From assembly GCF_003945235.1 (NCBI RefSeq), contig NZ_RSDW01000001.1:6060001-6092000 (forward strand): DNA of 32,000 nucleotides. Reading direction: 5' to 3'. The notes under the pieces are model-generated. The model was given only the letters and a program-made list of their open reading frames with translations, was not told the origin of the DNA and searched no databases. Below are positions 2 through 28,474 of the stretch, piece by piece; the stretch's first letter is position 1, and each line of letters begins with the position of its first letter. The stretch is from Edaphobacter aggregans (GTDB taxonomy: Bacteria; Acidobacteriota; Terriglobia; Terriglobales; Acidobacteriaceae). Both the position numbers and the translations under genes were made by a program.

Positions 2-3000
2 CACCCGGCGGGCATCGCGCTGGATGGCGGCAACAGTCTGTACGTGGTGGATAGCGGCGCCAATACGGTTACAGCGATCCAGGGCGCCAATTTGTCATCA
101 AGTGTGCTCGTAGCCGCGACTGCCACCTTTGGCGGCACTGCGCTCAGCGGACCGAAAGGCATCGCCCTCGACGGTTATGCCAATGTGTATATTGCAGACA
201 CCGGCAACAACCGCATTGTGATGGCGCACCAGTTTGGTGCCACTGCAACGGACAACGTCGTATACATCCCCAGCACCACAATCTTTGGCGGCACTGCGCT
301 CAGTGGGCCAACCGGACTAGCGGCCGATAGTGCGGGCGATCTGTTTATCGCCGATACCGGCAACAACCGCATCGTCGAGTACACGGCGCTCGGAGTAGCA
401 TCCGTCGTAAACACGGGATCGCTCACGTTGAATGCTCCGACCGGTATAACCGTTTATCCCTCTGGTGCTCTGGTGGTTACCGATACGGCTAACGGCGTAT
501 CGCTGCTCAACGGCGCTTCGAGCCAGGTGCTTTCGTTCGGATCCACCTATACGACTACCGGCGCGAAGGGCGTAGCACTGGATCTTACCGGAAACATCTA
601 TCTCTCCCTCTCCAACACGACCGGCGATCAGGTGCTGGAACTAAACGTAACATCTCCTCTGTCACTGAACTTTGCCAGCACGACCGAAGGACAATCCAGC
701 GCACCGGCGACAACACAGGTCTTCAACTCAGGAAACTCGTCACTGGTTCTCTCTACCCTCACTACCAGCAACGGGAACTACACAATCGAACCAAGCAGTA
801 CCTGCACGTCCACCTCGACGGTCACGGTCGGCAACTCTTGCAATCTGCTGACGGCCTTTACACCGCAGACCACGGCAACTCCGGGGACACTGACGGGATC
901 GCTGACCCTGACGGACAACCAGGCTGGGTACACACTGGTAACGACCACCTCGAATGAGACCGCGACCTTCGCCTCCACGGGCACGCAGGCGCTTAATCTC
1001 ACCGGCACGGCCGTAGCTGCGATCATTGGAGCGACACCGCAGACCATTACCTTCCCCGCACCTGCATCGCCGGTGGCTTACGGAGTTGGTCCTATCACGT
1101 TATCGGCCACCGCAAGTTCCGGGCTGCCGGTGACCTTCAGCGTCCTCTCCGGGCCGGGAACGGTTAGCGGCAACATCCTGACTATTACGGGTACGGGAAC
1201 GATTGTTGTTGCTGCAGATCAGGCAGGTAACGCCACTTACGCAGCGGCGACCGAAGTCGCGCAGAGCATTGTGGTCAATCTGGCGACTCCGACGTCAAAG
1301 CCTGCATTCGTTTTGAGCCAACTCTCCTGGCTTGGGAAGCTTCCTACCGGTGGATTTCTTGCCGGAGGAAGCCCGTCGGGTGGGAGTTTCGCAGTAAATC
1401 AGAACGGTGACGTCCTCGTAACCAATACTTATGGCAATTCCGTTTACTTGTTCAATGGGCAGACAGGCGCTGTCACCACCCTGTCATCGAATTTCACTAA
1501 CGTAGCCGCAGTCACGGTTGACAGCCAGAACAATCTTTACATTTCGCAGATGTATGGCTCGAACATCTACAAGATTCCTTACGTCAATGGAAGTTACGCT
1601 GCGGTAACACTTCCAACCTCGTCTCCGTATCCGCCATATTGCACAGGGACCGACACAGCGGAGTGCCAGTTTATCCAAGCGGGCAGTTCCAACGTCAAAG
1701 CCATGGCGTTCGATGCTTCGGGCAATTTCTTTATGGCCACTACGCCGTCGAGCTCAGGGGCATCTGCCATCTACGAGTGCCCTGCTTCATGCCAACCCAA
1801 TCCTGGGGCTACGTCAACGCTGATCTACTCCGACGTGAACGCGGTCGGTTCTATTGCCATCGATCCCTGGGGCAACTTGTTCTTCACGGATGCGGCCTTC
1901 AATAGCAGTGGACCCTCCGGCCAGGCCAGCACCAATTCAGCTCTCAACGAGCTTACTTACACTGCTGGAACAGGCTTTGCATCGACTCCGATTCAACTGG
2001 CGAACTACACCGTCCCTACGGCTTCGGTTAGCCAGTACGACGACACCCTGGGAGCTCTGGGAGTGGATGCAAACGGCACGGTATATTATGCGACCCAATA
2101 CAATACCAGCGGGATAAGAGCCCTTCCTAACAATCATGGAGTGGTCGACACCACCAACGTATACGGGGTCGCGACTCAGGGCGCAAAGCTCCTGACTCTG
2201 GATGCCAAGGGCAATATCTATATTGGCGCCAACAACAGTGGAGATTCAATCGGCAAGATTCTGCTGAACAATCTGGTTGCTCCAGCAGCAACGCTCGGGA
2301 CTTCGACAACAGCAACCAACGTAACAGTGATGGACAATTACGCAGGTTGCTCCAGCTCACCCACCCTAGCCTTCGGTGCGACGGAGGGCGGCGTTGCAAC
2401 GTCTGAGTTCACCGCCGTTACAACCGGCACTTGCGCGGGGCAGGCAAGCGGTTCTGATTTTGCCGCGACAATCACATTTGCGCCAACCGCAATAGGCACT
2501 CGAAGTGCGGTGTTGACCGTGGCAGACACGACAAACGGCGGCGTCGGGACAGCAACGGTTACAGGCGTCGGCAAAGCGGTTCCGACGACTCCACAGACGA
2601 TCACCTTCACAGCGCCTGCCACACCGATCGTCTACAGCACAACGCCGATCGTACTGTCAGCGACTGCGAGCTCCAACCTGCCTGTGACGTTCAGTGTTCT
2701 CTCCGGCCCAGGCACTATCAGCGGCAATACCCTGACGATTACAGGTGTAGGCACGGTGGTAGTTGCCGCGGACCAGGCAGGCAATACTACTTATTCGGTA
2801 GCGACCGAGGTTACACAGAGCATCGTGGTTACACAGGCGTCGCAGACGGTCGCCTTCACAGCGCCCACCACGCCGATTAGTTATACCTCGACGCCAATCA
2901 CGCTGTCGGCGACCGCGAGCTCAGGCTTGTCGGTGGCTTTCAGCGTCGTCTCCGGCCCAGCTACCGTCAGCGGCAACAGCCTCACGATTTCAGGTGTAGG

Positions 3001-4069
3001 CACAGTGGTCGTTGCCGCGAATCAGGCAGGCAATGCCAACTATACTGCGGCGTCCCAGGTAACGCAGAGCATCGTTGTTAACCAGGCGTCGCAAGCCATC
3101 AGCTTCACGGCGCCCTCTACTCCGGCCACCTACAGCGCCGCACCAATCACGCTGTCGGCGACTGCGAGTTCAGGGCTGTCGGTAGTGTTCAGCGTCGTTT
3201 CTGGTCCAGCAACCGTCAGTGGTAATGCTCTGACGCTTACCGGTACGGGAACGGTGGTTGTATCGGCGAATCAGTCGGGCAGTGCCAACTATGCTGCGGC
3301 GTCGCAGGTGACACACAGCATTGTTGTCAACTTGATCGGAGCAGCAGCAACCCCTGTTTTTACCCCCGCGGGTGGCAGTTATACTGCGGTGCAATCCGTG
3401 GCCATTACCGACGCGACGGCGGGATCGGTGATCTACTACACCACGGACGGAACCACACCATCAGCCAGCTCAACCGTCTACAGTGGCCCGATTTCAGTGA
3501 CGGCTACTAAGACGATCCAAGCTATTGCTGTAGCCACAGGCTATAACACCAGCTCTGTTGCTTCGGCTACCTACACCCTTAACCTGGTTCCGCCGAGCTT
3601 CACCATTGCGATCAATCCAGCATCCCTTACTATCCCCTCCGGTTCGCAGCAGGGAGCGGTCAGCCTGACGGTGACACCGCAGAATGGCTTCAACGCTGCT
3701 GTTACGTTTGCATGCTCGGGTCTGCCCACGGGCGCCTCGTGCTCCTTCACCCCATCAACCGTGACACCAACGGCCGGCGCATCGACCACCGCATTTTCAA
3801 TCTCCGTTCCTGCGTCGTCTGCGGCGGTTCGCTACAACTCCAGTCCGCTGTTGCCTGGCACAACCCTTGCGCTCGCACTCTGCTTCTTCGGATGGAGGAA
3901 GCGGCGCGGCGTGCAAATCCTGTTTGTACTTGCGATAAGCGTATTCGGTTTCAGCATGCTCTTCGGGTGCAGCACATCCACCAAGCAATCCTCAACGTCG
4001 TCAGTGACTGTAACAGCCACATCAGGCTCCATACAGCAAACTGCCAGGTTGTCACTCACGATCCAATAA
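2..4069 (+). CDS. Giant secreted NHL-repeat beta-propeller / Ig-like-repeat protein with a chitobiase-type C-terminal (CHB_HEX_C-like) domain; the 5' end lies outside the window
   Basis: The frame is open from nt 2: HPAGIALDGGNSLYVVDSGAN continues an NHL blade upstream of the listed GTG at 44. Blades of type P.GIA.D..GN.YIAD.GNNRIV recur, and a second six-blade propeller sits at about aa 430-740. There are four 83-aa Ig-like repeats and a YYTTDGTTPSASSTVYSGPISV motif. The C-terminus carries a hydrophobic helix, RKRR, a second helix ending in GC, and a tail. Confidence 0.85.
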   Translation, partial: HPAGIALDGGNSLYVVDSGANTVTAIQGANLSSSVLVAATATFGGTALSGPKGIALDGYANVYIADTGNNRIVMAHQFGATATDNVVYIPSTTIFGGTALSGPTGLAADSAGDLFIADTGNNRIVEYTALGVASVVNTGSLTLNAPTGITVYPSGALVVTDTANGVSLLNGASSQVLSFGSTYTTTGAKGVALDLTGNIYLSLSNTTGDQVLELNVTSPLSLNFASTTEGQSSAPATTQVFNSGNSSLVLSTLTTSNGNYTIEPSSTCTSTSTVTVGNSCNLLTAFTPQTTATPGTLTGSLTLTDNQAGYTLVTTTSNETATFASTGTQALNLTGTAVAAIIGATPQTITFPAPASPVAYGVGPITLSATASSGLPVTFSVLSGPGTVSGNILTITGTGTIVVAADQAGNATYAAATEVAQSIVVNLATPTSKPAFVLSQLSWLGKLPTGGFLAGGSPSGGSFAVNQNGDVLVTNTYGNSVYLFNGQTGAVTTLSSNFTNVAAVTVDSQNNLYISQMYGSNIYKIPYVNGSYAAVTLPTSSPYPPYCTGTDTAECQFIQAGSSNVKAMAFDASGNFFMATTPSSSGASAIYECPASCQPNPGATSTLIYSDVNAVGSIAIDPWGNLFFTDAAFNSSGPSGQASTNSALNELTYTAGTGFASTPIQLANYTVPTASVSQYDDTLGALGVDANGTVYYATQYNTSGIRALPNNHGVVDTTNVYGVATQGAKLLTLDAKGNIYIGANNSGDSIGKILLNNLVAPAATLGTSTTATNVTVMDNYAGCSSSPTLAFGATEGGVATSEFTAVTTGTCAGQASGSDFAATITFAPTAIGTRSAVLTVADTTNGGVGTATVTGVGKAVPTTPQTITFTAPATPIVYSTTPIVLSATASSNLPVTFSVLSGPGTISGNTLTITGVGTVVVAADQAGNTTYSVATEVTQSIVVTQASQTVAFTAPTTPISYTSTPITLSATASSGLSVAFSVVSGPATVSGNSLTISGVGTVVVAANQAGNANYTAASQVTQSIVVNQASQAISFTAPSTPATYSAAPITLSATASSGLSVVFSVVSGPATVSGNALTLTGTGTVVVSANQSGSANYAAASQVTHSIVVNLIGAAATPVFTPAGGSYTAVQSVAITDATAGSVIYYTTDGTTPSASSTVYSGPISVTATKTIQAIAVATGYNTSSVASATYTLNLVPPSFTIAINPASLTIPSGSQQGAVSLTVTPQNGFNAAVTFACSGLPTGASCSFTPSTVTPTAGASTTAFSISVPASSAAVRYNSSPLLPGTTLALALCFFGWRKRRGVQILFVLAISVFGFSMLFGCSTSTKQSSTSSVTVTATSGSIQQTARLSLTIQ
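1034..1282. repeat. Dispersed copy of the 249-bp Ig-like repeat unit (intragenic)
   Basis: It encodes TPQTITFPAPASPVAYGVGPITLSATASSGLPVTFSVLSGPGTVSGNILTITGTGTIVVAADQAGNATYAAATEVAQSIVVN. This is collinear with the three tandem units at 2588-3334. Confidence 0.75.
2588..3334. repeat. Intragenic tandem repeat, 3 x 249 bp (83-codon Ig-like units)
   Basis: Units start at 2588, 2837 and 3086. Each encodes ..Q.I.F.AP..P..Y...PI.LSATASS.L.V.FSV.SGP.T.SGN.LT..G.GT.VV.A.Q.GN..Y.....V.QSIVV. The copies are clearly diverged at nucleotide level, so these are old duplications. Confidence 0.85.
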
Positions 4070-4091
4070 CTCTTGTAATAGATGTACCCGG

Positions 4092-4135
4092 CCGTTGAGG
4101 TCTCTTAGAAGAGACCTCAACGGGCCAGCACTTTT
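4092..4135 (+). terminator. Hairpin terminator candidate after the first giant gene
   Basis: A perfect inverted repeat CCGTTGAGGTCTCTT / AAGAGACCTCAACGG (4092-4106 / 4109-4123) begins 23 nt after the stop. A TTTT run at 4132-4135 is separated from the stem by 8 nt, so the structure is not fully canonical. Confidence 0.55.
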
Positions 4136-6052
4136 ATGAAAATGTTCTGCCGATCATCGCTCCGTATTAATACAAACGTCTCCGCCATCTTACTGCTCGC
4201 GCTGCTGACGGGAGGTGTCCTTAGCGCCCAGGAGACACCTCAACAAGCGATCCCTACAGGAACGACGCAGAATGATCACCCCGCATATACGCTGCATACG
4301 AGCACGAATCTTGTCATTCTTGATGTCGTTGTGTCGAGCCCCAACGGTCATCCCGTGCACGATCTCCAGGCGAAGGACTTTGTAGTAAGCGAGGATGGAA
4401 GGCCTCAGCAGGTTCGTAACTTTCAGCAGCACGCTATGCCGGTTACAGGCCACGATGATTCGATGGCTCCGCCAAAACTGGCACCGGGGCTGTTCACCAA
4501 CTTCACAACCTCCCATGGAGACGGGCCGGCGAATGTTCTTTTGTTGGATATGTTGAACACGCCGCTGCGCGATCAAACCTATGCGCGGCAACAGATTCAG
4601 GACTATCTGAACCATGCTCCAGATGGAACGCAGGTCGCGATCTTTGGACTCTCCAACCGTCTTGCCATCCTGCAGGGTTTTACTTCTGATACGAGACTTT
4701 TGAAGGCCGCGCTGTCTCGCAAGAACGCCACGAAAGGCTCGTCTTTGCTCAACGACCCGTTAGGCGGAGGAACGGGCGGGGGGCCAGGCGAAAGCAGTGT
4801 ATCCGATGCGCTCGCTGACATGGGGACAACTCCCGATATCCTTGAGGCTGTTGCAAACGCCCAGCAGTTCGAAGCTGAGTCCGAGACGTACCAATTTCAG
4901 CAGCGCGCGCAGATCACCCTCGATGCCCTGAACGAATTAGCCCGTTACCTGGCGAATATTCCGGGGCGCAAAAACCTGATCTGGTTTTCTGGGTCGCTGC
5001 CGATTAATATTCTGCCCAACGGCAACACGAACAATGGCTTTGCCAGTATGGGCAACTGGGAGGCGGAGTTTCGGGAGACGACTGACCTGCTCGTTCGCAG
5101 TCAGGTTTCTCTCTATCCCATCGATTCGCGCGGGTTGACGAACTCCAGCGTTTATAGTGCGGCAGGTTCAGGCCGAAAATACGCGCGGGACCCGACGATT
5201 GCCGGCAAGGACGAAGCGAAGTTTGACGCGCAAAGGGCAGGGGAAAATGACACCATGCTACAGACCGCGCACGACACAGGAGGCCGTGCGTTTATCAATA
5301 CCAACGGTCTCAGCGCCGCAGTCGCGGAAGCCATCGAACACGGCTCTAGTTATTACACCCTGACCTACCTGCCCGCGAACAAAAATTGGGACGGACTCTA
5401 TCGCAAGATCGAGGTCGCGGTGCCGGGAAAGAACTATACCCTCTCCTACCGCCGAGGTTACTATGCAGACGACCCCAGTACTCCTGCCTCACTCTCAAGT
5501 CATGGGGTTGCTGCGATGCCTGAAGATGCCGCAGCCAAGAGTCTGATTACCCGGACGATGGTGCGTGGCTCACCGGTGCCTACGCAGATCATCTTCACTG
5601 TGCGAGTACGGCCCGAGACTGGGACAGCGGAAAGTGAGGCATTGGCCGGGAACGAACTCGCCGCTGCAAATCCGGAGGCGCGACCGCCCTTCACTCACTA
5701 TGCCGTCGACTTCGCTCTTAATGCGCGAGACATCTCCTTTTCGCAATCCAACGGACTTTTGCATGGAGCCTTCGAGTTCGTCATCTTTGTCTACGACGCA
5801 AATGGAGCGCTGGTGAACCGTGTTGGTTCTACTCTCCATGCTGATTTGAAACCGGCGGTTTATATGGACTTCCTGCATCACCCTCTCTCGTATAACCAGG
5901 ACATCAGCGTACCGCGCAAGGGTGACTATTTTCTGCGTGTCGCCGTACATGACCTGAATAGCGACCGGGTCGGCGCCGTTGAAGTTCCCGTAGATTCAGT
6001 CAAAAATCTTCCACCACTTTCTGCGGATACCTCTCCGCCTTCTGGCAGGTGA
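4136..6052 (+). CDS. Secreted VWA-domain protein of the acidobacterial VWFA-related type (TIGR03436-like)
   Basis: It has a signal peptide (ILLLALLTGGVLSAQE). The N-terminal module TSTNLVILDVVVSSPNGHPVHDLQAKDFVVSEDGRPQQVRNF is typical of this family. The VWA core shows NVLLLDMLNT...VAIFGLSN...NLIWFSGS...SLYPIDSRGL...GGRAF. The tail reads SYYTLTYLP..YRKIEV. Confidence 0.85.
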   Translation: MKMFCRSSLRINTNVSAILLLALLTGGVLSAQETPQQAIPTGTTQNDHPAYTLHTSTNLVILDVVVSSPNGHPVHDLQAKDFVVSEDGRPQQVRNFQQHAMPVTGHDDSMAPPKLAPGLFTNFTTSHGDGPANVLLLDMLNTPLRDQTYARQQIQDYLNHAPDGTQVAIFGLSNRLAILQGFTSDTRLLKAALSRKNATKGSSLLNDPLGGGTGGGPGESSVSDALADMGTTPDILEAVANAQQFEAESETYQFQQRAQITLDALNELARYLANIPGRKNLIWFSGSLPINILPNGNTNNGFASMGNWEAEFRETTDLLVRSQVSLYPIDSRGLTNSSVYSAAGSGRKYARDPTIAGKDEAKFDAQRAGENDTMLQTAHDTGGRAFINTNGLSAAVAEAIEHGSSYYTLTYLPANKNWDGLYRKIEVAVPGKNYTLSYRRGYYADDPSTPASLSSHGVAAMPEDAAAKSLITRTMVRGSPVPTQIIFTVRVRPETGTAESEALAGNELAAANPEARPPFTHYAVDFALNARDISFSQSNGLLHGAFEFVIFVYDANGALVNRVGSTLHADLKPAVYMDFLHHPLSYNQDISVPRKGDYFLRVAVHDLNSDRVGAVEVPVDSVKNLPPLSADTSPPSGR

Positions 6053-6601
6053 TTGATTGTCGTCATTTGGGGAGGAAGCTATTGAGTGCGTTCGGTGAGA
6101 GGCTCATTTCATAAATAATGTCGAGTAACAAAATAAATCCATATTTTCGTAACTTTCTATGTGATTCCATGTTTCACTTCCCGATACGTGTCCTGGTCTG
6201 CCAACTGGTTAAGAGCTCCTTTAGGGAGCTTTACGAGGCTGTCTCTACGGCCTGGCATAAGCATGACTGCAATGATCGTTCGTGTGATCTCAGATGCTTG
6301 CTTTTACCGCCCTCTGACGCGTATGGCTCATCTGGCGGATTTCGACCTTCCGCGCCGATATTGGCCAATCCGCTGCCTATATGTGCAGATCTGCCTTCGA
6401 AGAAAATGAAAATTTATTCCTCCTGCACAGTTCCCGATTCGTTCCTTCCCGAGGCACGCGATGGTGCTCGTCTCGATGATGATCATTCCGAATCTGTCGA
6501 TACCGTCCCCCATTTTGTCGACATCAGAGACGAGAATTTAGCCCTGAACAAGGCTTATGTCAGGAACCGTTTCGGTTTTACCAAGGAGCTCAAAAATATA
6601 T

Positions 6602-6631
6602 TTGACAGACGTAAGTGCATAACCCTATATT
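6602..6631 (+). promoter_or_regulatory. Sigma70-like promoter candidate upstream of the second giant gene
   Basis: TTGACA (6602-6607) is followed by an 18-nt spacer and TATATT (6626-6631), inside the AT-rich gap about 190 nt upstream of the ATG at 6819. This is a motif match only. Confidence 0.2.
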
Positions 6632-6818
6632 TCGAGTCGCGATTTAAATTAAAAAGCACTCAAAGTCAGCTTTGACCGTTCGGATGTGAGCCCGATTCGG
6701 CATTGCGCACTAGACCCTTGCTTTCTCGCCGGAGACGGCGATGGAGGCACTTACTAATGAACGCGAAGTTTTAGATCTCTCAGTCTGACAGCCTCAAAAT
6801 TTTGGAGTCGATCAAATT

Positions 6819-9800
6819 ATGGAACCATCCGGCATCACACCAAGCCATCCTGTGCCCCACGAAGAAAGAACGTCTTTTGCCGCTCTTGGAGTATTCGCTT
6901 TTATTGCGGCAATGCTTGTGCTGTGCGGCTCGGTTTCAGCCAGGGCGCAGACCATTCCGGGTGCTGTGGTTTACCAGGCAAAGATGCTGGTCAACATCAA
7001 TGGCAACGCTGGTCACCTTGCGGCGAACAATCTTGGCGATGCGTTCTATGTGAGCCAGACTGACAACGTAGCTTACTGGTTGCCTCGTGGAACCACGACT
7101 CCTGTTTCGTTGGTTACGGGTCTCAGCGGCGGCCGGTCTGTGACTGTCGATGCATTCAATAATGTGTACGTCTCCAGCAATTACAGCGGACGCGTTATCG
7201 AGGTGCCCTATGTGAACGGCACCTACGCCACAGGCACGGCGAACAGCAGCGGTTTGCCCAACTGTACCGGAGCTCCTACGGGACCGTGTTTGGCCTTTGG
7301 CAACGGTGGGGGGCCAACCGGAGGTTATCTGCAGACGGGCGATATCGGCTTCGATCGGCCGACAACGGGTGCGCCAAACGCATATGTAATTGATGAGCGC
7401 GACAACGTCTGTAACCAGGGCAGTGCCGCAACGACCTGCAACAGGATCCTGAAGTTCACTCCGGCGGGCAGCGGTGCGTATACCGCCACCGTTGTCGTTA
7501 CGGGACTGCCTCAAACGAACAATGGGCAGATAGCGGTGGGTCCGAATGGCGACATCTATTACGCGGACGGAAGCAAAGTCTATTACATAGCTGCTGGCAC
7601 TACCTCAGCAGTCACCATCGGCACAGGGTTAACCAATCCTACTGGCGTAACGACCGACTACTACGGCAACCTCTATATCACCAACGCCTCGACGCCGAAT
7701 GCCATTCTCGAAATGCCTGCAGTGAACGGTGTAGCACAGCCGAATCAGCAATTCACTTTTCTGAGCACCTATTCGGCTAACGGCATCGCATTCGATGGCC
7801 TCGGTGACGTTTACTATACGGGCTATTCGGGCCAGACCAATCTGAACGTAGCCAAGATCAATGCGTTTAGTCTCGGATCGGCTGCGATCGGCACACCAGT
7901 TTCTGCGTCAGTTACGACGCTCACGGTGCAATTCAACACTTCCGTCAACGTTGCTGCGATCACTCCTTCCGGTGCTGCGGGCTTCTCCTATGTAGCTGGA
8001 ACCTGCACTCCGGGCGCATATACCGCAGGGAATACCTGCAATTTCAATGTGAACTACACCCCCACCGCCGCTGGGTTGCAGAAGGGGGCCGTAAATTTCA
8101 CTACCGCTACTGGCTCTAATATCGTCGTCGCGTCTCTTTCCGGCACCGGCATGGGCGTTGTACAGACCAGCGATCCCGGCACGATAAGCACGATCGGTAG
8201 CGGCCTCTTGAATCCTCAGGGGATCGCCGTCGATAGCGCGCAGAATGTTTACATCGCGGATGCAGCAGCTAATGCCGTATTCATGTATCCCGCAGGATCC
8301 AGCACTGGAACTTCAATTGGCTCGGGCCTCGTTGGGCCGACGTCTGTTGCACTCGATAATTCCGGAAATCTGTACATTGCAGATTCCGGTAACGGGCGCG
8401 TTGTACAGGTTCCTAATATTGCAGGTACGCTCACGACAAGCGCGCAAACCGTAATCATGAGCGGCCTCGGCACCGCGCTCGGCATCGCGACCGATCAGAA
8501 CAGCAACCTGTATATCGCAGATAGCACCAACAACGAAGTGCTGCAACTTGGCGCGGTAGCAGGGATTCCCAGTTCCAGTGCGACCAGGCAGATGGGCTTA
8601 TCCTCGACTACTTATAAGTCCATCTTTACTGCTCCTATCGCTGTGACAACCGATGGCGGCGGCAACCTGTTCGTCGCGGACACTTTAGCGAATACGGTGA
8701 CGGAGATTACTTATTATGGCCAGCAGACCCTAAACATCGGTACGGGGTATTCACACCCATCGGGCCTGGCTACTGATGCTTCCGGCAGCCTCTATGTTGC
8801 TGACAGCGGTAATGGCCTTTTGCTCAAGATTCCTTTTGAGTCGCCGATTTTCAACACCAATGATGAATATGTGGTCGGTGGCGCAATCATCGCACCTTAC
8901 GGTGTTGCGCTTGACCGCTTAGCCAATCTATACGTGGTGGACAGCGCGAACGCGGGCGCCTATGCGATCAACCGCGCGCAGGGCACGTTGCCATTAGGTC
9001 GCGGGAACATCAATGCGACGACCTCACAACTGAAGGGCTATATCGGCAACGCCGGTAATCAGCCGCTGATACTGGGTAATCCTGGCTACGTCGCAACAGG
9101 CGATACCACGGTGTTTACGATAACCTCGCCGCCGACTACCGGATGCGTGAACTCTGCCACAATCACCTCAGGTTTTGCCTGTTCTCTGTCCGCGAGCTTC
9201 AGCCCGACCGTGGTTGGCAACTACAGTGAGTTGTTGTCGTTCACGAGCAATGCCTCCAACACGGCCACTCCCAGCCTGACGCTGACCGGTACTGGTCTGA
9301 ACCAATCCGTTACCACCATCGCTCTGGCGCAAACGAGTCCGTCCGGTACAGCGCCTTTCGGTCAGGCCGTCACCATCACTGCGACGATCAGTTCCACCAA
9401 GGCGGGTACACCTACCGGCGCTGTGGCGTTCTCCATCGATGGCGGACAGGCTAAGAATGTCCAACTGAGCGGCAATACAGCTCATATTACGCTGACTAAT
9501 CTCACTGGCGGCAGTCACGTGATCTCCGCGAGCTACTCAGGAGATCTCCTGTTTGCCCCCAGCAACACTGTTCTCACTGTCGTGGTTGCCCAGGCAAGCA
9601 GCACGACGGTCATGACCACTACCGGCGGCAATCATAATCCGGATAGCGCTCGACCCGGAACGGCGTTGACGCTGATCGGCACGATTACGCCGGGAGCAAG
9701 CACGGTGCCGACCGGACAAGTCACATTCACGTTGAATGGCAAAGCATTGGCAGCTCCGGCTACGGTTGCGCCAGTCACCACAGTTACCGCTGGAGTGACT

Positions 9801-10613
9801 ACCACCACGTACCAGGCCTCTATCTCGATATCCACACTGCCGGCAGGCTTGGACTCGATCGTTGCCACCTATAGCGGTGACGTCAATTATGTCTCTTCTA
9901 CAGGTACGTTGGGCGTGACCATCACACCCATGACCTTTTCTCTGACCCCTGCAGTCGCCACGGTAACGGTATCTGCAGGGCAGACCATAACGACTCCGCT
10001 TCAGGTGGCTTCGCTCTCCGGCTTCCAGGGCTTCGTCGGTCTAAGCTGCACCGGCCTGCCGGCGAACGTGACGTGCGGGTTCAGTCCAAACAACTTCGTT
10101 CTGCAGCCGGACAACCTGATCACCGCAGAGCAGGATAAGAACGGAGTGACCGTCGTACCAGCAACCTATGGCCCGATGAACATCACCCTCAGCGTCATTA
10201 CGGGCACAACGCCCGTCGTGCCGCAACCGCCAGTCGGTGCCTTGAAGCTTCCTCTGTTTGGGAAGAAGGTTCCGGTCAGTCTGGCGTTTCTGATGCTCTC
10301 GCCCATCGCACTCGCAGTGCGCCGCCACCGCGCATTGAAGCACTTACGCGGATCGCTCAGCCTGTGTCTGGCCTTGCTCGCATTGTTCGGCAGCATAACC
10401 ATGTTTACCGGCTGCGGTTCGAACCTGGTCGGTGTAACGCCGCAGGGAACCTACACCGTAACGATACGGGCAGTGAGCTCGGCGACGGCTACCTACAAGG
10501 GCTCTTTCGCCCCGGGATGCAGTAACTCTCCCGCTGGCTCAGTTGATTCCTCTGGAGCTCCAACGGTCACCTGTGAGCAGGACACACAGTTGAGTCTCTC
10601 GGTGAAGCAATGA
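6819..10613 (+). CDS. Giant secreted double NHL-type beta-propeller / Ig-like-domain protein
   Basis: It has a signal peptide (FAALGVFAFIAAMLVLCGSVSARAQT). There are two sets of six blades, e.g. LNPQGIAVDSAQNVYIADAAANAVFMY, VGPTSVALDNSGNLYIADSGNGRVVQV and SHPSGLATDASGSLYVADSGNGLLLKI. Ig-like domains follow (AVAFSIDGGQAKNVQLSGNTAHITLTNLTGGSHVISASYSGD). The C-terminal helix, RRHR, helix-GC and tail module matches that of the first giant. Confidence 0.85.
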   Translation: MEPSGITPSHPVPHEERTSFAALGVFAFIAAMLVLCGSVSARAQTIPGAVVYQAKMLVNINGNAGHLAANNLGDAFYVSQTDNVAYWLPRGTTTPVSLVTGLSGGRSVTVDAFNNVYVSSNYSGRVIEVPYVNGTYATGTANSSGLPNCTGAPTGPCLAFGNGGGPTGGYLQTGDIGFDRPTTGAPNAYVIDERDNVCNQGSAATTCNRILKFTPAGSGAYTATVVVTGLPQTNNGQIAVGPNGDIYYADGSKVYYIAAGTTSAVTIGTGLTNPTGVTTDYYGNLYITNASTPNAILEMPAVNGVAQPNQQFTFLSTYSANGIAFDGLGDVYYTGYSGQTNLNVAKINAFSLGSAAIGTPVSASVTTLTVQFNTSVNVAAITPSGAAGFSYVAGTCTPGAYTAGNTCNFNVNYTPTAAGLQKGAVNFTTATGSNIVVASLSGTGMGVVQTSDPGTISTIGSGLLNPQGIAVDSAQNVYIADAAANAVFMYPAGSSTGTSIGSGLVGPTSVALDNSGNLYIADSGNGRVVQVPNIAGTLTTSAQTVIMSGLGTALGIATDQNSNLYIADSTNNEVLQLGAVAGIPSSSATRQMGLSSTTYKSIFTAPIAVTTDGGGNLFVADTLANTVTEITYYGQQTLNIGTGYSHPSGLATDASGSLYVADSGNGLLLKIPFESPIFNTNDEYVVGGAIIAPYGVALDRLANLYVVDSANAGAYAINRAQGTLPLGRGNINATTSQLKGYIGNAGNQPLILGNPGYVATGDTTVFTITSPPTTGCVNSATITSGFACSLSASFSPTVVGNYSELLSFTSNASNTATPSLTLTGTGLNQSVTTIALAQTSPSGTAPFGQAVTITATISSTKAGTPTGAVAFSIDGGQAKNVQLSGNTAHITLTNLTGGSHVISASYSGDLLFAPSNTVLTVVVAQASSTTVMTTTGGNHNPDSARPGTALTLIGTITPGASTVPTGQVTFTLNGKALAAPATVAPVTTVTAGVTTTTYQASISISTLPAGLDSIVATYSGDVNYVSSTGTLGVTITPMTFSLTPAVATVTVSAGQTITTPLQVASLSGFQGFVGLSCTGLPANVTCGFSPNNFVLQPDNLITAEQDKNGVTVVPATYGPMNITLSVITGTTPVVPQPPVGALKLPLFGKKVPVSLAFLMLSPIALAVRRHRALKHLRGSLSLCLALLALFGSITMFTGCGSNLVGVTPQGTYTVTIRAVSSATATYKGSFAPGCSNSPAGSVDSSGAPTVTCEQDTQLSLSVKQ

Positions 10614-10714
10614 GGAGTCCTTTGAAATCTGCACTCCACAACCGTATTCATTCCAACCCCGCCGGAAGACTACCCGGTGGGAAACAGGAACCCTCACAGA
10701 TAGGTGATCTCCCG

Positions 10715-13700
10715 ATGAAGAACTACCTTCGTATCTTGTCCTTCTGCATGGCGCTTTTGGCGACCCTGTTCCTCTATCAGCCGACGTCATCCTGGGCCCA
10801 GACGACGAGCGCATCGCTCAGTGGTGTCGTTTCCGATACGACGGGAGCTCTCATCCCACAGGCCAACGTGATACTTCGTAACACGAAGAGTCATGATCTT
10901 CGTCACACGACCAGCAGCGGTGCGGGCATCTTCCGATTCAATGCGGTACCTGCTGGTACGTATAGCGTCACGATCAGCATGAAAGGCTTCCAGACACTGG
11001 TGACGCGCGATATCGAGCTTCATCCAAACGATAACGTCAGCATGTCTGAGCTGCACATGAAGGTTGGTGCTGAAGATGTGAGCGTGACGGTGGAAGCGAA
11101 TACCGATATCGCGACTAACGGCGAGCGCAGCTCGTTGATCACGGCCAAGGATATTCAGAAACTTTCGACTGTTGGCCGCGACGTCTCCGAACTGCTGCGC
11201 ACGCAGGCGGGTTTCGCTGTCGTTCAGAATGGCCTGGACAACGCGAGTTCCAGTTCGGCGGAAGTTGCCGGCACCTATTCCGGTCTATCGAACTACGTTG
11301 GCAACGGAGCAACGGCCAACGGTGCAAGCATTATTTCGGATGGCGCCAATGTTACCGATCCCGGTAGCGGCGCTGGCCAGACTCAGACCGTCAACATGGA
11401 CTTTGTCCAGGAAGTAAAAATCGAGACCTCCAACTTCGGTGCTGATACGGCCAAGGGGCCGACCGTCATCACGGCAGTAGGGAAGTCAGGTGGTCAGGCA
11501 TTCCACGGTAATCTTCGCGCCTATGCGCGGACCTACCAGCTCAACGCGCAGGACTGGTTTCAGAAATTCCAGAACTTCGGCACCATCAAGGATCACTACA
11601 TTTATCCCGGCGTTGAGATCGGCGGCCCGGTTCTATTTCCACACAGCGATTTCAATAAGAATCGCAAGTTGACGTTCGAGTTTGGAGCTGAAGACTACGT
11701 TCAGCGCAACGTCTACGCTTACGGCAGCTTACCGAAGAGTCTTCTGGAGGGCTTGGTTCCCACCAAGGCCATGCTCAACGGCGACTTTTCTCAGCAAGCC
11801 CTTGCAGATTACCTGGGAGTACATGTCGAGGACATTTACGGTACGGGCAACTACGGCGCAGGTTGCACACCCAATGGTCTGCTGTCCACCTATTACCATA
11901 TTTGTGCCTCGCCGAGCAGCAACGGTGGGCACTTAGGCCCGATCGATCCCGGCGTCTCCGCCATTCTAAGGGCATACTATGAGCCAGGCTGCACAGGAGA
12001 CCTCAGCACCTGCCCAGGTCCCGGACCGACAAAGAACTTCTACAACACACAAACCCTGAATTTGGAAAACCCGGACAGCTACCAGATCCGTTACCGTCTC
12101 GACTACAGCATCAACGACAATAACAAGCTGTTTTTCGTCTATAACGGTCAGTTCGGAACGACATCGCATATTCCGGAGTCGATATATTATTCGCCGGGAA
12201 CAAGCGGTCAGGCATATCTTGGCGGAGCCGACACTCCGGGAAAGATTAATGCCAAATCATCTTCCCACCTTGGCAGCGTCAACTACACCCACGTCATTAG
12301 TTCGAAGATGACGAATGAGATATTTGCGGGTCTCTCAGCCGTAAAGAATTCCTATGCTTCCGGTAATCAAAGCTTACTGAGCAAAAGCACATGGGGCTAT
12401 CCGTATCAGGGGATTTATCCAAAGGCAACCAGTCAATTGCCTCAGATAGCCACGTACTCGGCGGGTGATGCAATCCTTCCCTTTGCCATTACCCCGGATT
12501 TCAGCGCCGGGCCATATCTGTCGACAAAGTTCCTGCCGTCCGGTGGCGATAACTTCTCCTACGTCCTCCGCGCCCATACGCTGAAATTTGGCGTTTACGC
12601 CGAACGCGACACGGCCAATCAGACAGATCTCAGCCCAATGACCAATGGCCAGATATCGAACTATTACATGAATAATAGCAACGGTACTTGCGACCCCAGT
12701 TCGTTCCTCCGCGGAGGCGGTGCAAGCTGCGGTGAGAACTATTTGGCGGACTTCTTCGCTGGCTACGTTGGCACCTTTACGCAGCAAAACTTCAATGCGA
12801 AGACCGACCTCTATTATTGGACAGCATCCTGGTATGCGACGGACAGCTATAAGCTAACCAAAAAACTGACGCTCGACTTCGGTGTACGCTTCGATCACCT
12901 TGGTCCCTGGCAGGACAAGCATGGATTGGGAATGGCGACCTTCTTCCCCAATCTGTACGCTACAGACGCCAAGAACACCACCAATCCGGATGGAAGCCTG
13001 TTCGAGCCGGGCGTTCGATGGCACGGCGGAAATCATGCCACAAACAACAATGCAGGCTTCGCAGGCGTACCGAACTCAGGTGTTCCTTCCCGTTGGGCTT
13101 TCGTATCACCGCGCGCAGGTTTTGCATTGGATGCCTGGGGCACAGGAACTACGATCATCCGCGGTGGCTGGGGCATGTATCGCGCCCATGACTCCTGGAA
13201 TGACTTCACCGGGCCGGCAGCCACTGCTCAGGGCCTTGTAACGTCAACCGTGGGAGGCAGCCCAACTCAGGGCTCAGTTTCACTTGCGCAAGTCGACCAA
13301 ACAGGCCCGGGCTTCCGCTGCGATTTCAGCCAGCAAAACGGCTGCCCTAGCATCATGCTTCTGGATCCGAGCGACAACCAACAACCTCTGACGCAGACCT
13401 ACAGCTTCTCGGTGTCTCAGAGATTTCCTTTCGACTCTGTCTTCGATATCGCTTATGTCGGCAACCAGAGCAAAGATCTCCTTACCGACAACGCTTCGAC
13501 CAACGCCGTGCAAGCCCAGGATCTGCGGGACGTCAATGCCATTCCGATTGGTTCCTTCTTCAAACCGGATCCAAACCCAGCCTCGTCGCTGTTCGGCCAG
13601 GTTCCAAATTTGGCAAGCTTCCAGCAAGTCCAGCAGAACGACTACCGCAAATACCCAAACTACAGCCACATGGGCATGCCGCGCCATATCGCTTATGCCA

Positions 13701-14602
13701 ACTACAACGCGCTCCAAGCGAACTGGAACCGGCAGAGAGGCCGTCTGAACTATGGTCTGAACTATACGTTCAGCAAAGCGCTCGGCGTCCGCGGCGCGTT
13801 CAACAATGGCATGGCCGGCGATCCAACAAACCTGCGGGCAAATTATGGTCCCCTTGCCTTTGACCGTACCAGCATCATTGGCGCCAGTTACTCCTACGAT
13901 ATGGGCGAGCGGTTCCATTCCGGCAACCGATTCCTGCGTGGCCTGGCTAACTTCTGGATGGTTTCGGGTATCACGAACTGGCAGAGTGGACCGAATCTTC
14001 AGGCTGTCTATGCCCCAAACTTCAACCTCCAGGGTTATGCGAATAGCTCATACGGTGGTAACCGTTGTGCGGTTGGTGTGGCATCGAATCTAACGACCGC
14101 ATGCCAAATCAGCAACACTATGTTGTTAGGCACTACAGATGTAATGTTGCAGCCGGTAATTCGCCCTGGCACAGGCTGTCTGGGTGGTAATCCCACTGGT
14201 GGACTACAGAAAAATCAGTTCATCAACGGCAACTGCTTCGGCCTGGGACCTCAGGGCGTAAACGGCCCAACGAGCCTCGGTTATATTCATGGACCAGCGT
14301 TCTTCAACAGCGATCTGACGTTGCAGAAGACTTTTCCTTTGAAGGAGAGTCGGAATATACAGCTCCGTCTTGCGGGTTTCAATTTTCTGAATCACCCGCT
14401 GACCAGCTTCAGCTCGCGCTACCCGAGAGAAGCCAACTTGCAGTTCTATGATCCGGATAATGTCGGATTTTCAGGAGTGCAATTGGTCAATAGCGCCAAC
14501 CCCAACGGGAGCTGTAGCGATGCTGGATCGCAATGCTTCGGCTATGCTGGATATAAGACGGGCCGACGCGTAGTGGAGATCATGGCGAGGTATACCTTCT
14601 GA
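10715..14602 (+). CDS. Oar-like TonB-dependent transporter: CarboxypepD_reg domain, degenerate plug and large beta-barrel
   Basis: I place the start at ATG 10715, which is preceded by AGGTGA (10702-10707) and gives the signal peptide MKNYLRILSFCMALLATLFLYQPTSSWAQT. The N-terminal domain reads LSGVVSDTTGALIPQANVILRN...GIFRFNAVPAGTYSVTISMKGFQ. A plug-like segment reads LITAKDIQKLSTVGRDVSELLRTQAGF. The protein ends in an aromatic residue (...MARYTF), typical of outer-membrane barrels. Confidence 0.85.
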   Translation: MKNYLRILSFCMALLATLFLYQPTSSWAQTTSASLSGVVSDTTGALIPQANVILRNTKSHDLRHTTSSGAGIFRFNAVPAGTYSVTISMKGFQTLVTRDIELHPNDNVSMSELHMKVGAEDVSVTVEANTDIATNGERSSLITAKDIQKLSTVGRDVSELLRTQAGFAVVQNGLDNASSSSAEVAGTYSGLSNYVGNGATANGASIISDGANVTDPGSGAGQTQTVNMDFVQEVKIETSNFGADTAKGPTVITAVGKSGGQAFHGNLRAYARTYQLNAQDWFQKFQNFGTIKDHYIYPGVEIGGPVLFPHSDFNKNRKLTFEFGAEDYVQRNVYAYGSLPKSLLEGLVPTKAMLNGDFSQQALADYLGVHVEDIYGTGNYGAGCTPNGLLSTYYHICASPSSNGGHLGPIDPGVSAILRAYYEPGCTGDLSTCPGPGPTKNFYNTQTLNLENPDSYQIRYRLDYSINDNNKLFFVYNGQFGTTSHIPESIYYSPGTSGQAYLGGADTPGKINAKSSSHLGSVNYTHVISSKMTNEIFAGLSAVKNSYASGNQSLLSKSTWGYPYQGIYPKATSQLPQIATYSAGDAILPFAITPDFSAGPYLSTKFLPSGGDNFSYVLRAHTLKFGVYAERDTANQTDLSPMTNGQISNYYMNNSNGTCDPSSFLRGGGASCGENYLADFFAGYVGTFTQQNFNAKTDLYYWTASWYATDSYKLTKKLTLDFGVRFDHLGPWQDKHGLGMATFFPNLYATDAKNTTNPDGSLFEPGVRWHGGNHATNNNAGFAGVPNSGVPSRWAFVSPRAGFALDAWGTGTTIIRGGWGMYRAHDSWNDFTGPAATAQGLVTSTVGGSPTQGSVSLAQVDQTGPGFRCDFSQQNGCPSIMLLDPSDNQQPLTQTYSFSVSQRFPFDSVFDIAYVGNQSKDLLTDNASTNAVQAQDLRDVNAIPIGSFFKPDPNPASSLFGQVPNLASFQQVQQNDYRKYPNYSHMGMPRHIAYANYNALQANWNRQRGRLNYGLNYTFSKALGVRGAFNNGMAGDPTNLRANYGPLAFDRTSIIGASYSYDMGERFHSGNRFLRGLANFWMVSGITNWQSGPNLQAVYAPNFNLQGYANSSYGGNRCAVGVASNLTTACQISNTMLLGTTDVMLQPVIRPGTGCLGGNPTGGLQKNQFINGNCFGLGPQGVNGPTSLGYIHGPAFFNSDLTLQKTFPLKESRNIQLRLAGFNFLNHPLTSFSSRYPREANLQFYDPDNVGFSGVQLVNSANPNGSCSDAGSQCFGYAGYKTGRRVVEIMARYTF

Positions 14603-25657: not shown

Positions 25658-25828
25658 ATAACCATCCGTCTGCAATACTTTACCCGAAGAAGGTACTTAT
25701 AAGAACAGAAGTCCAAAGCTAAGTATCATTTTATGAATACTTTGCGCAATAAGTGTGGGGGTGGGGAGTACTGGACCTGATGAATCAAGCTCTTGCATCC
25801 AGCGTCTAATTAGTTGAAAGGGAATGAA

Positions 25829-26752
25829 ATGACCAAATATCTGCTGGCTGCAACACTACTCACTGCAACACTTCTCCCAGCTCAGGAAGGCCCCACCCGT
25901 ACTCAGGCCCTCATTGCTCTGGATTCCAAATCCCCCCAGACCCCAACTTCGCAAAACATCATCATTAAGGTCAACGACCGGGCGACTCCTCTCACGAGCC
26001 TTGCCCCCATCCCGCCCACCGGAGCCCAGGTAGCCCTCCTCATCGACGACGGTCTCCGCACTAGCGTAGGTCGCCAACTCGACGACATTCGCAACTTCAT
26101 CACGACCCTTCCGCAGGGGACCGAAATCTTCATCGGTTACATGGAAAACGGCCGCGTCGTGCCCGCCCAGGAATTCACCACTGACTATGCCAGTGCAGCC
26201 AAAAACCTCCGTATCCCGATGGGCACCGCGGGCGCCAGCGCGAGCCCTTACTTCTGCCTCTCCGATTTCACCAAGCACTGGCCTGGAGCGCCCGAGCGGG
26301 AGGACTCGATCCAAACCCCCAAGGCCCGCTTCGTCATGATGCTCACCAACGGCGTTGACCCGTATAACGGGAGCGTCAGCCCCCTGAACCAGAACAGCAC
26401 CTACGTTGATGCGGCTGTCGCCGACGCCCAGCGCGCAGGCATCGCCGTCTACTCGATCTACTACGGCGACTCTGGCATTCGTGGCGAAGCCGCCAGCTTC
26501 AGCGGGCAAAGCTACCTGTCTGAGGTTGCAGAAGGCACCGGCGGCCGCACCTACTATCAGGGAACCGGCAACCCCGTCTCCATCGGACCTTTCCTCAAGC
26601 AGTTCCGGGGAGCGATTGCCGAGACGTACGTCGCCACCTTCGAAGCACCTGGCAACAAAAATATGGTTCGAATCAAACTTTCGACCAACCTGCCTGGCAC
26701 GAAGGTTCGAGCTGCCCAGGAGATCCGCCCAGGAACGGCTATCACTCCATAG
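25829..26752 (+). CDS. Secreted VWA-like protein (short acidobacterial VWFA-type paralogue)
   Basis: I place the start at ATG 25829, with signal peptide MTKYLLAATLLTATLLPAQE. Its layout is collinear with the 4136 gene: VALLIDDGLRT...EIFIGYMENG...FVMMLTNG...IAVYSIYYG...GTGGRTYY...TYVATFEAPG..VRIKL. Confidence 0.7.
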   Translation: MTKYLLAATLLTATLLPAQEGPTRTQALIALDSKSPQTPTSQNIIIKVNDRATPLTSLAPIPPTGAQVALLIDDGLRTSVGRQLDDIRNFITTLPQGTEIFIGYMENGRVVPAQEFTTDYASAAKNLRIPMGTAGASASPYFCLSDFTKHWPGAPEREDSIQTPKARFVMMLTNGVDPYNGSVSPLNQNSTYVDAAVADAQRAGIAVYSIYYGDSGIRGEAASFSGQSYLSEVAEGTGGRTYYQGTGNPVSIGPFLKQFRGAIAETYVATFEAPGNKNMVRIKLSTNLPGTKVRAAQEIRPGTAITP

Positions 26753-27763: not shown

Positions 27764-28381
27764 CTAGTTGAAGAGTTTTCGGCGGAGGGCTCCGACGGCT
27801 CCAAGAGCTCCGGTGCCGAGGAGCAGGAGGCTACCTGGCTCGGGAATGGGAGAAGGATCTCCGGCTGAAGCGACGTTGGTGAAGATGAAGGCGTCGTCGT
27901 TGTAGTCGAAGTCGGAGGAGCCGTTCGGGAGGTCTTCCATTCCGACGTAGGTTCCGGCCGGAAAGATCGTTCCGCTGAGGTCGCCGCCGGTGAAGGGCGT
28001 TACGTAGGCATGGTTGATCCCGTCAGCGCTGTAAGTGCCGTCGGAGGCTAAGATCTGGCCGGTGGCATAGTTGTAGAGCTCGAAGACAAGTGTGTCACCG
28101 GCGTTGACGTGACCGAAGTTCGCAGCGGCGTCGAAGGCAGTGGCGTGATTGGGGAAGAAATAGTTGCTGACCCAACCTGTGTTGACGTCGATCATTCGGA
28201 TGCTGTCGTCGTCGCCTGCGCTTTGGGAGACGAAATATCCGGTGATGTTGCCGGTAGCAGCGGCGGTAATGCTCGACTGCGGAGCTATGGTGCCGACATT
28301 ACTGTAAGGGATAGCATCAGCGGCAGCAAAGAGAGATCCGGCGGCAAGGCAGAGGAGTACCGCGAATGAACGAAAGGGCAT
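27764..28381 (-). CDS. PEP-CTERM-anchored secreted protein with a DUF4114-like domain
   Basis: I place the start at ATG 28381, with SD AGGAG upstream and signal peptide MPFRSFAVLLCLAAGSLFAAADA. The DUF4114-like motif is GMEDLPNGSSDFDYNDDAFIFTNV. The C-terminal sorting signal is PIPEPGSLLLLGTGALGAVGALRRKLFN. Confidence 0.9.
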   Translation of the reverse strand: MPFRSFAVLLCLAAGSLFAAADAIPYSNVGTIAPQSSITAAATGNITGYFVSQSAGDDDSIRMIDVNTGWVSNYFFPNHATAFDAAANFGHVNAGDTLVFELYNYATGQILASDGTYSADGINHAYVTPFTGGDLSGTIFPAGTYVGMEDLPNGSSDFDYNDDAFIFTNVASAGDPSPIPEPGSLLLLGTGALGAVGALRRKLFN

Positions 28382-28474
28382 TGAGACGCTCCTGTGAGAT
28401 GGTTTGCATATATGCACGGGAATGGCCAAACCTAGGAATGACCAAAAACCCGGTGTTTTTGAGGGGGTCAGTGT

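Follow-up and report, generated by a model that had tools for sequence, protein, structure and literature searches.

In a 32,000-nucleotide stretch of the Edaphobacter aggregans genome (contig NZ_RSDW01000001.1, positions 6,060,001 to 6,092,000; hereafter the window), we analysed a protein module that ends two giant exported proteins, copy 1 being encoded at 3590-4069 and copy 2 at 9930-10613, both on the forward strand. The module is an immunoglobulin-like (Ig-like) β-sandwich into which two predicted transmembrane helices (TM1 and TM2), separated by a basic cluster and followed by a lipobox-type cysteine, are inserted ahead of the last two strands. On the strength of its sequence and predicted structure, we consider that it is probably a C-terminal membrane or lipid anchor, in which a stop-transfer helix is combined with a re-entrant internal signal of the lipoprotein type, both lodged in a split Ig domain. 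If the internal lipobox is used, the lipoprotein pathway would act in the middle of a polypeptide and would anchor proteins C-terminally, following a sorting logic separate from that of sortase- and exosortase-type systems.

Architecture of the module and its place in the Ig-like fold

The sequence quoted in a preliminary description of this DNA is the exact translation of 3590-4069, with the Cys codon at 3968-3970 and the stop codon at 4067-4069; residue numbers for copy 1 refer to the 159 residues encoded there. The N-terminal part of the sandwich occupies residues 3-73 (3596-3808), for which AlphaFold2 (AF2), supplied with the family alignment, predicted six strands with a local confidence (pLDDT) above 90, the mean over the whole module being 83.8; Foldseek matches and homology to uninterrupted copies of the domain delimit the same region. 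A P-L-L-P motif (residues 86-89, 3845-3856), represented by a PxxP motif in relatives, stands at the outer edge of TM1. The core of TM1, TTLALALCFFGW (residues 91-102, 3860-3895), was delimited by an AF2 helix at 90-101, by hydropathy and by conservation, L93, A94 and G101 each being kept in at least 90% of the family alignment. The basic cluster RKRRG (residues 103-107, 3896-3910), in which R105 and R106 are invariant and whose charge is a family feature, leads into TM2, VQILFVLAISVFGFSMLFG (residues 108-126, 3911-3967), which contains an AF2 helix at 108-122 and corresponds to an uncharged stretch in most members of the family. Both helices were modelled with pLDDT values of 53-77. The lipobox L-F-G-C (3959-3970), recognised from column conservation and a PS00013-type pattern, ends at Cys127, which is residue 1323 of the window-encoded portion of the host protein. 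A Ser/Thr-rich tether (residues 128-137, 3971-4000), which is Gly/Ser-rich and of variable length in relatives, then connects to the tail SVTVTATSGSIQQTARLSLTIQ (residues 138-159, 4001-4066), identified by AF2 and by homology as the last two Ig β-strands; AF2 placed these at 135-145 and 148-158 with pLDDT values of 95-97, and the tail motif VTVTA.SG is invariant in the alignment. The protein therefore does not end after its basic cluster, since 52 residues lie beyond RKRRG.

Copy 2 forms the C-terminal end of giant 2, the product of an open reading frame (ORF) at 6819-10613 that begins with an evident N-terminal signal peptide of the general secretory (Sec) pathway. It was delimited by alignment, by its match to the curated profile NF058595, by hydropathy and by AF2, and its parts are TM1 (10269-10319), a basic loop (10320-10352), TM2 (10353-10412) and the Cys codon (10413-10415), all on the forward strand. 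The order of elements is that of copy 1 (helix, RRHR..., helix, F-T-G-C, strands) and the two copies align on every feature, including the invariant Cys; the tail of copy 2 is longer and carries an additional Cys pair. AF2 predicted helices at 119-135 and 143-162 of this copy, and tail strands with pLDDT values of 86-95.

Uninterrupted copies of the same domain locate the hairpin within the fold. In two loci (L004 and L070), such copies stand in tandem and directly precede the interrupted terminal copy, and a third locus (L046) has them as well; in these copies '...LTISASA' leads directly into 'T.TVTVTGTSG...TLTV', with only a short loop where the cassette would be. We built a hidden Markov model (HMM) of 99 positions from the family alignment after deleting residues 77-135, that is, the hairpin, and it aligned without gaps, over positions 2-98, with the uninterrupted copies. 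Because this hairpin-deleted profile fits the uninterrupted copies and because the AF2 tail strands are so confidently placed, homology and modelling show the hairpin to be inserted into a terminal Ig-like domain, ahead of its last two strands. When searched against 1.84 billion representative sequences, the profile retrieved 24,177 proteins with an E-value of 1e-3 or less, 898 of which reached 1e-30 or less; among the best 150 of the 24,177 matches, 106 had uninterrupted copies (up to 33 per protein), 52 ended in the cassette and 9 had both. Foldseek matched the copy 1 model to whole sandwiches of the Ig type, with alignments of about 160 columns (E down to 5e-6, TM-scores of 0.45-0.49), among them PapD/FimC chaperones, Fn3-like domains of subtilases and the linker domain of a sialidase. 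The preliminary description had read the region as a terminal Ig-like domain interrupted before its final strands, with two helices around a basic cluster and a tail made of the missing strands, and these points are upheld: AF2 and hydropathy predict both helices in each copy, and the tail corresponds in alignment to the final strands of the uninterrupted copies. A sequence search of the PDB gave no relevant match and thus no homologous protein of solved structure.

The interrupted domain has a peculiarity of its own, a near-invariant Cys pair (C42/C51, encoded at 3713-3742) in the sequence 'FACSGLP.GA.CSF'. The uninterrupted tandem copies show 'LSAVGLPSGITASFSP' at this place and lack the pair, which may form a disulfide that steadies the split domain. 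A variant of the insertion was seen in the last 110 residues of a 3334-residue protein (P0064), where the cassette lies one strand later and only the final strand follows the Cys. This protein passes NF058595 at 40.3 bits and also scores 87 bits with NF058597 ('choice-of-anchor Z repeating domain'); the two models have neighbouring accessions and may stem from roughly the same period of curation.

Conservation, lipobox and related signals

A protein search with the 159 residues of copy 1 returned 49 database relatives, in whose alignment the lipobox Cys is invariant. With a single back-translated peptide pattern from the tail, we confirmed 205 loci among species-representative genomes, nearly all of them Acidobacteriaceae (Terracidiphilus, including T. 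gabretensis, Granulicella aggregans and Acidicapsa dinghuensis) and some from cultured strains; several genomes carry more than one locus, and the closest genomic relatives are metagenome-assembled genomes (MAGs) of Acidobacteriaceae. Cultured carriers include Granulicella aggregans M8UP14 (WP_184222511.1), Terracidiphilus gabretensis S55 (WP_157439745.1) and Acidicapsa dinghuensis. The 49 homologues, the 205 loci, the invariant Cys and the match of both copies to a curated HMM at E about 1e-7 make the module conserved far beyond chance. It apparently serves many exported enzymes and adhesin-like giants of soil Acidobacteriaceae. Two loci (L062 and L071) come from MAGs labelled Alphaproteobacteria and Acetobacteraceae, the former also with frameshifted extra copies; these labels may reflect mis-binning or transfer.

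Family statistics were drawn from 96 module-bearing ORFs, taken from 80 loci and the window. A Cys occupies the aligned column in 90 of them, the other six being fragments, frameshifted pieces or matches without the C-terminal cassette, and it is followed by 31-49 residues, the module forming the extreme C-terminus of its carriers. Among the 90 Cys-bearing members, position -1 of the lipobox is G (67), A (18) or S (5), position -2 is S, T, N, F or A, and position -3 is L in 57 and V, A, I, F or M in the others; position +2 is G (73), S (11) or A (5), which accounts for 89 members. The stretch ahead of the Cys is uncharged over 16-21 residues in 86/90, and the inter-helix loop carries a net charge of +3 to +5 in 84/90. 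When a PS00013-type lipoprotein rule was applied from the basic cluster onwards, both window copies matched and 66/89 members passed, the failing members mostly carrying Asn at -2. The L-x-[GAS]-C pattern is thus conserved and canonical-looking, which bears out the lipobox-like L-F-G-C of the preliminary description. Signal peptidase I follows a -3/-1 rule that Leu at -3 does not fit.

Copy 1 has the parts of a type II signal peptide, of the kind handled by Lgt, LspA and Lnt and described by PS00013/PS51257: RKRRG, then 19 uncharged residues, then LFGC. Across the family, the positive n-region, the uncharged h-region, L-x-[GAS]-C and the Gly/Ser tether are shared with such signals; genuine N-terminal lipoprotein signals encoded in the same loci look similar, as far as 16 candidates allow the comparison. 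The position differs, however. Type II signals have their Cys within residues 15-35, whereas more than 1300 residues, including a proposed stop-transfer helix, come before the internal signal, and only 31-49 residues come after its Cys.

The orientation of the module follows from its carriers. At least 43 of the 66 relatives whose N-terminus falls inside the locus start with a Sec signal peptide, so that the passenger lies on the extracytoplasmic side. If the Arg/Lys loop is inside, the two halves of the Ig domain come to lie outside together, as the fold needs. The same arrangement was found away from the C-terminus in two independent sequences, L028 (a 3241-residue ORF at 490-10212, module at residues 1938-2060) and P0196 (residues 1700-1860). 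In each, a second, near-identical cassette (RKKRRG.QLMLLAAS...TGC) comes about 30 residues past a complete split-Ig module and precedes further exported domains, about 1000-1180 residues in all, which start with 'CVKPL...' or 'CGGSSSG...' in the manner of mature lipoproteins. From their sequence, these proteins look like either a membrane protein with four helices or a lipoprotein polyprotein. Their tandem layout means that the cassette is a self-contained out-in-out unit whose lipobox is kept whatever comes after it.

The layout is already the subject of a curated model. NCBIfam NF058595.1 ('invert_tail', 'lipo-invert putative C-terminal anchoring domain', release 20.0) is a profile of 113 positions that comprises the last strand of the N-terminal part, TM1, the basic loop, TM2, the Cys, the tether and the tail strands. 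Copy 1 matched positions 7-113 of the profile with its residues 64-159 (E 1.3e-7, 31.9 bits) and copy 2 matched positions 2-102 (E 1.9e-7, 31.4 bits). The profile was matched by 31/32 aligned homologues. Relatives scored 36.1 bits (P0001, the closest), 51.3 (P0009), 58.4 (P0026), 49.9 (the Granulicella aggregans protein) and 65-79 (with P0039 at 79.4); scores were 51-58 bits for homologues 49-55% identical to copy 1 and rose to as much as 79 for more distant ones. The homologues that pass the threshold align with copy 1 on all features and show the same order of TM helix, basic loop, TM helix, Cys and short tail at the extreme C-terminus. Because the matches of the window copies are nearly full-length though below the cut-off, and in view of the scores of their relatives, these copies are, by sequence comparison, divergent members of a family recognised by curators, just below its trusted threshold; the Ser/Thr tether of copy 1 is unusually short for the profile, and copy 2 contains extra insertions. 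The earlier statement that no characterised sorting domain has this layout thus needs qualifying: NF058595 already models the layout, as a putative anchoring domain, while the function is given there only as 'putative' and no publication was found. Mechanistically, the module is unusual. No Pfam model covers the cassette, and public records name its carriers by other domains ('chitobiase/beta-hexosaminidase C-terminal domain-containing protein', 'alpha-galactosidase', 'DUF7948 domain-containing protein'), the alpha-galactosidase name appearing in both UniRef and JGI/IMG; since annotation mentions these other domains only, the anchor is easily overlooked.

The preliminary description had also likened TM1 and its surroundings to tripartite signals of the PEP-CTERM or LPXTG type. 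The likeness of layout holds: a short Pro motif, a short helix, an Arg/Lys cluster and varied exported passengers are shared with the PEP-CTERM/exosortase, LPXTG/sortase, GlyGly-CTERM/rhombosortase and PGF-CTERM/archaeosortase systems. In contrast to these, the module continues for about 55 residues, and its motif is Pro/hydrophobic/hydrophobic/Pro, neither PEP nor LPXTG. No sorting-signal model was matched above its cut-off either (TIGR02595 and PF07589 for PEP-CTERM included), the generic LPXTG_anchor alone appearing below threshold, and the assignment of TM1 to such a signal was rejected; with the PEP-CTERM HMMs the module gave no match at E up to 1, nor did any of ten TM1 segments searched in isolation at E up to 10.

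Proposed mechanism and alternative explanations

The features described above would fit the following course of events. The N-terminal Sec signal would export the passenger until TM1, behind the PxxP motif, halts the transfer, and the Arg/Lys cluster would remain in the cytoplasm, where it would serve both as the loop and as the n-region of the internal signal. TM2 would re-insert with its N-terminus inside and its C-terminus outside and would constitute, with the basic cluster and L-x-[GAS]-C, a complete internal type II signal peptide. Lgt would then attach diacylglycerol to the invariant Cys, and signal peptidase II (LspA) would probably cut. The lipid-bearing Cys, the flexible Gly/Ser tether and the two β-strands would complete the Ig sandwich and keep the passenger at the membrane, which might be the inner or the outer one. 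The net effect would be to give large exported proteins, whose passengers vary, a lipoprotein anchor at their C-terminal end. Were the chain cut, the domain would presumably persist as a natural split Ig domain joined by strand complementation, its fold being completed by a separate polypeptide much as in the donor-strand complementation of chaperone-usher systems. The PapD/FimC-type sandwiches that head the Foldseek matches are a likeness generic to Ig folds, and, unlike in chaperone-usher systems, both pieces here come from one gene product, with no usher or chaperone.

Several points speak against this mechanism. The most serious one is the following: were signal peptidase II to cut just once, the hairpin would still tether the passenger, and it is not obvious what the lipid would add. 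The hydrophobic core of TM1, at 12-13 residues, is short for a stable stop-transfer helix, and the -2 residue of the lipobox is atypical in copy 1 (F) and in 13 relatives (N). Both window copies fall under the curated NF058595 cut-off of 37 bits, and the packing of the tail onto the sandwich is suggested by pLDDT, Foldseek and homology, not by measured contacts. Finally, searches of the literature for lipo-invert, NF058595, internal or C-terminal lipoboxes and choice-of-anchor domains yielded no relevant paper; the HPI protein of Deinococcus, considered as a precedent, was rejected, an N-terminal signal being mis-worded there.

The redundancy of a lipid beside a hairpin is one argument for a simpler view, namely that a plain membrane hairpin tethers the Ig domain to the inner membrane and that the Cys, neither lipidated nor cleaved, is conserved for some other reason such as packing or redox chemistry. 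Two helices with a positive-inside loop suffice for anchoring, and the conserved TM1 residues L93, A94 and G101 could pack on TM2. This view, however, leaves unexplained why an invariant Cys follows G, A or S, why Leu is found at -3 and why a Gly/Ser tether comes next, nor does it explain why the lipobox is kept ahead of a region of about 1000 residues in L028 and P0196. We therefore hold a plain hairpin to be rather unlikely, although it is the foremost competitor of the lipoprotein-type anchor.

The PxxP motif brings in a further possibility. Pro/hydrophobic/hydrophobic/Pro (PLFP, PFLP, PLLP, PFFP and similar) was found in 60/86 members, and in 46 of these 60 it lies exactly 17 residues ahead of the basic cluster; the fixed register, together with the conserved L93, A94 and G101, suggests a specific recognition and not a generic anchor. 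The anchor might thus be processed twice, at PxxP by a sortase-like or other protease and at the lipobox by signal peptidase II, so that the hairpin is excised. We judge this improbable, and equally improbable its expected product, a two-chain lipoprotein whose N-acylated 33-residue tail supplies the last two Ig strands and which the Lol system could transport to the outer membrane. Besides the distance of PxxP from the basic cluster, the motif-helix-basic layout resembles that of known sorting signals and the genome encodes at least one true PEP-CTERM protein; C42/C51, peculiar to the interrupted copy, could hold the split domain, and the lipobox has G or S, not Asp, at +2. Yet TM1 is matched by no model of PEP-CTERM or another sorting signal, PxxP is missing in 26/86 members, and the clustering of ORFs around the 80 loci, examined for a dedicated processing enzyme, revealed no conserved neighbouring enzyme but only shadow ORFs and local synteny (RlpA-like and radical-SAM genes). 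We know of no precedent for a doubly processed anchor; if it did exist, L028 and P0196 would be true lipoprotein polyproteins.

That an error or mutation fused the giant gene to a small downstream lipoprotein gene, or that the assembly is frameshifted, is next to impossible and was ruled out by conservation: the basic cluster, TM2 and Cys do resemble the start of a separate lipoprotein, but the in-frame layout recurs in the 205 loci of many genomes, twice in the window and in cultured strains, and the tail makes sense solely as part of the upstream Ig domain. A separate internal translation start for the tail was likewise ruled out, no conserved Met standing before the basic cluster.

Host gene and neighbouring genes

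The host of copy 1 is a giant exported protein with NHL, Ig-like and CHB_HEX_C domains (2-4069, forward strand), the N-terminus of which lies beyond the edge of the window. According to its translation and Pfam, its reading frame is open from base 2, in the middle of an NHL repeat; since NHL-repeat sequence continues in frame from there, a GTG at 44 was rejected as the start. Pfam placed NHL repeats and a CHB_HEX_C/Fn3_assoc domain directly upstream of the module. A full-length orthologue of this giant (L001), 1892 residues long and 60% identical across all 1355 visible residues, also carries the module; the loss of the module from orthologues, which would have spoken against its first description, is thus not what is seen. 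A VWFA gene lies near the orthologue as well.

In the window this neighbour is encoded at 4136-6052 on the forward strand and is an Acidobacteria-specific VWFA-related protein (TIGR03436, 259.8 bits). A second protein with a VWFA-related acidobacterial domain is encoded at 25814-26752 on the same strand, where the TIGR03436 match is weak (40.5 bits, below cut-off). The interval between the first VWFA gene and giant 2 (6053-6818) contains a sole ORF, of 185 residues (6118-6675) and without a Pfam match, and may be non-coding. The stop codon of giant 2 overlaps the ATG (as ATGA) of a 1330-residue ORF at 10610-14602 on the forward strand. An NCBIfam search of this ORF at E up to 1e-3 gave no match; by eye, it resembles an acidobacterial TonB-dependent receptor with an N-terminal carboxypeptidase-regulatory-like domain.

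The PEP-CTERM protein that had been noted in the window is real. It is encoded at 27764-28429 on the reverse strand, includes a DUF4114-like region and passes both the Pfam cut-off (26.3 bits for a cut-off of 20.7) and that of TIGR02595 (22.7 for 16), which implies an exosortase system in this genome.

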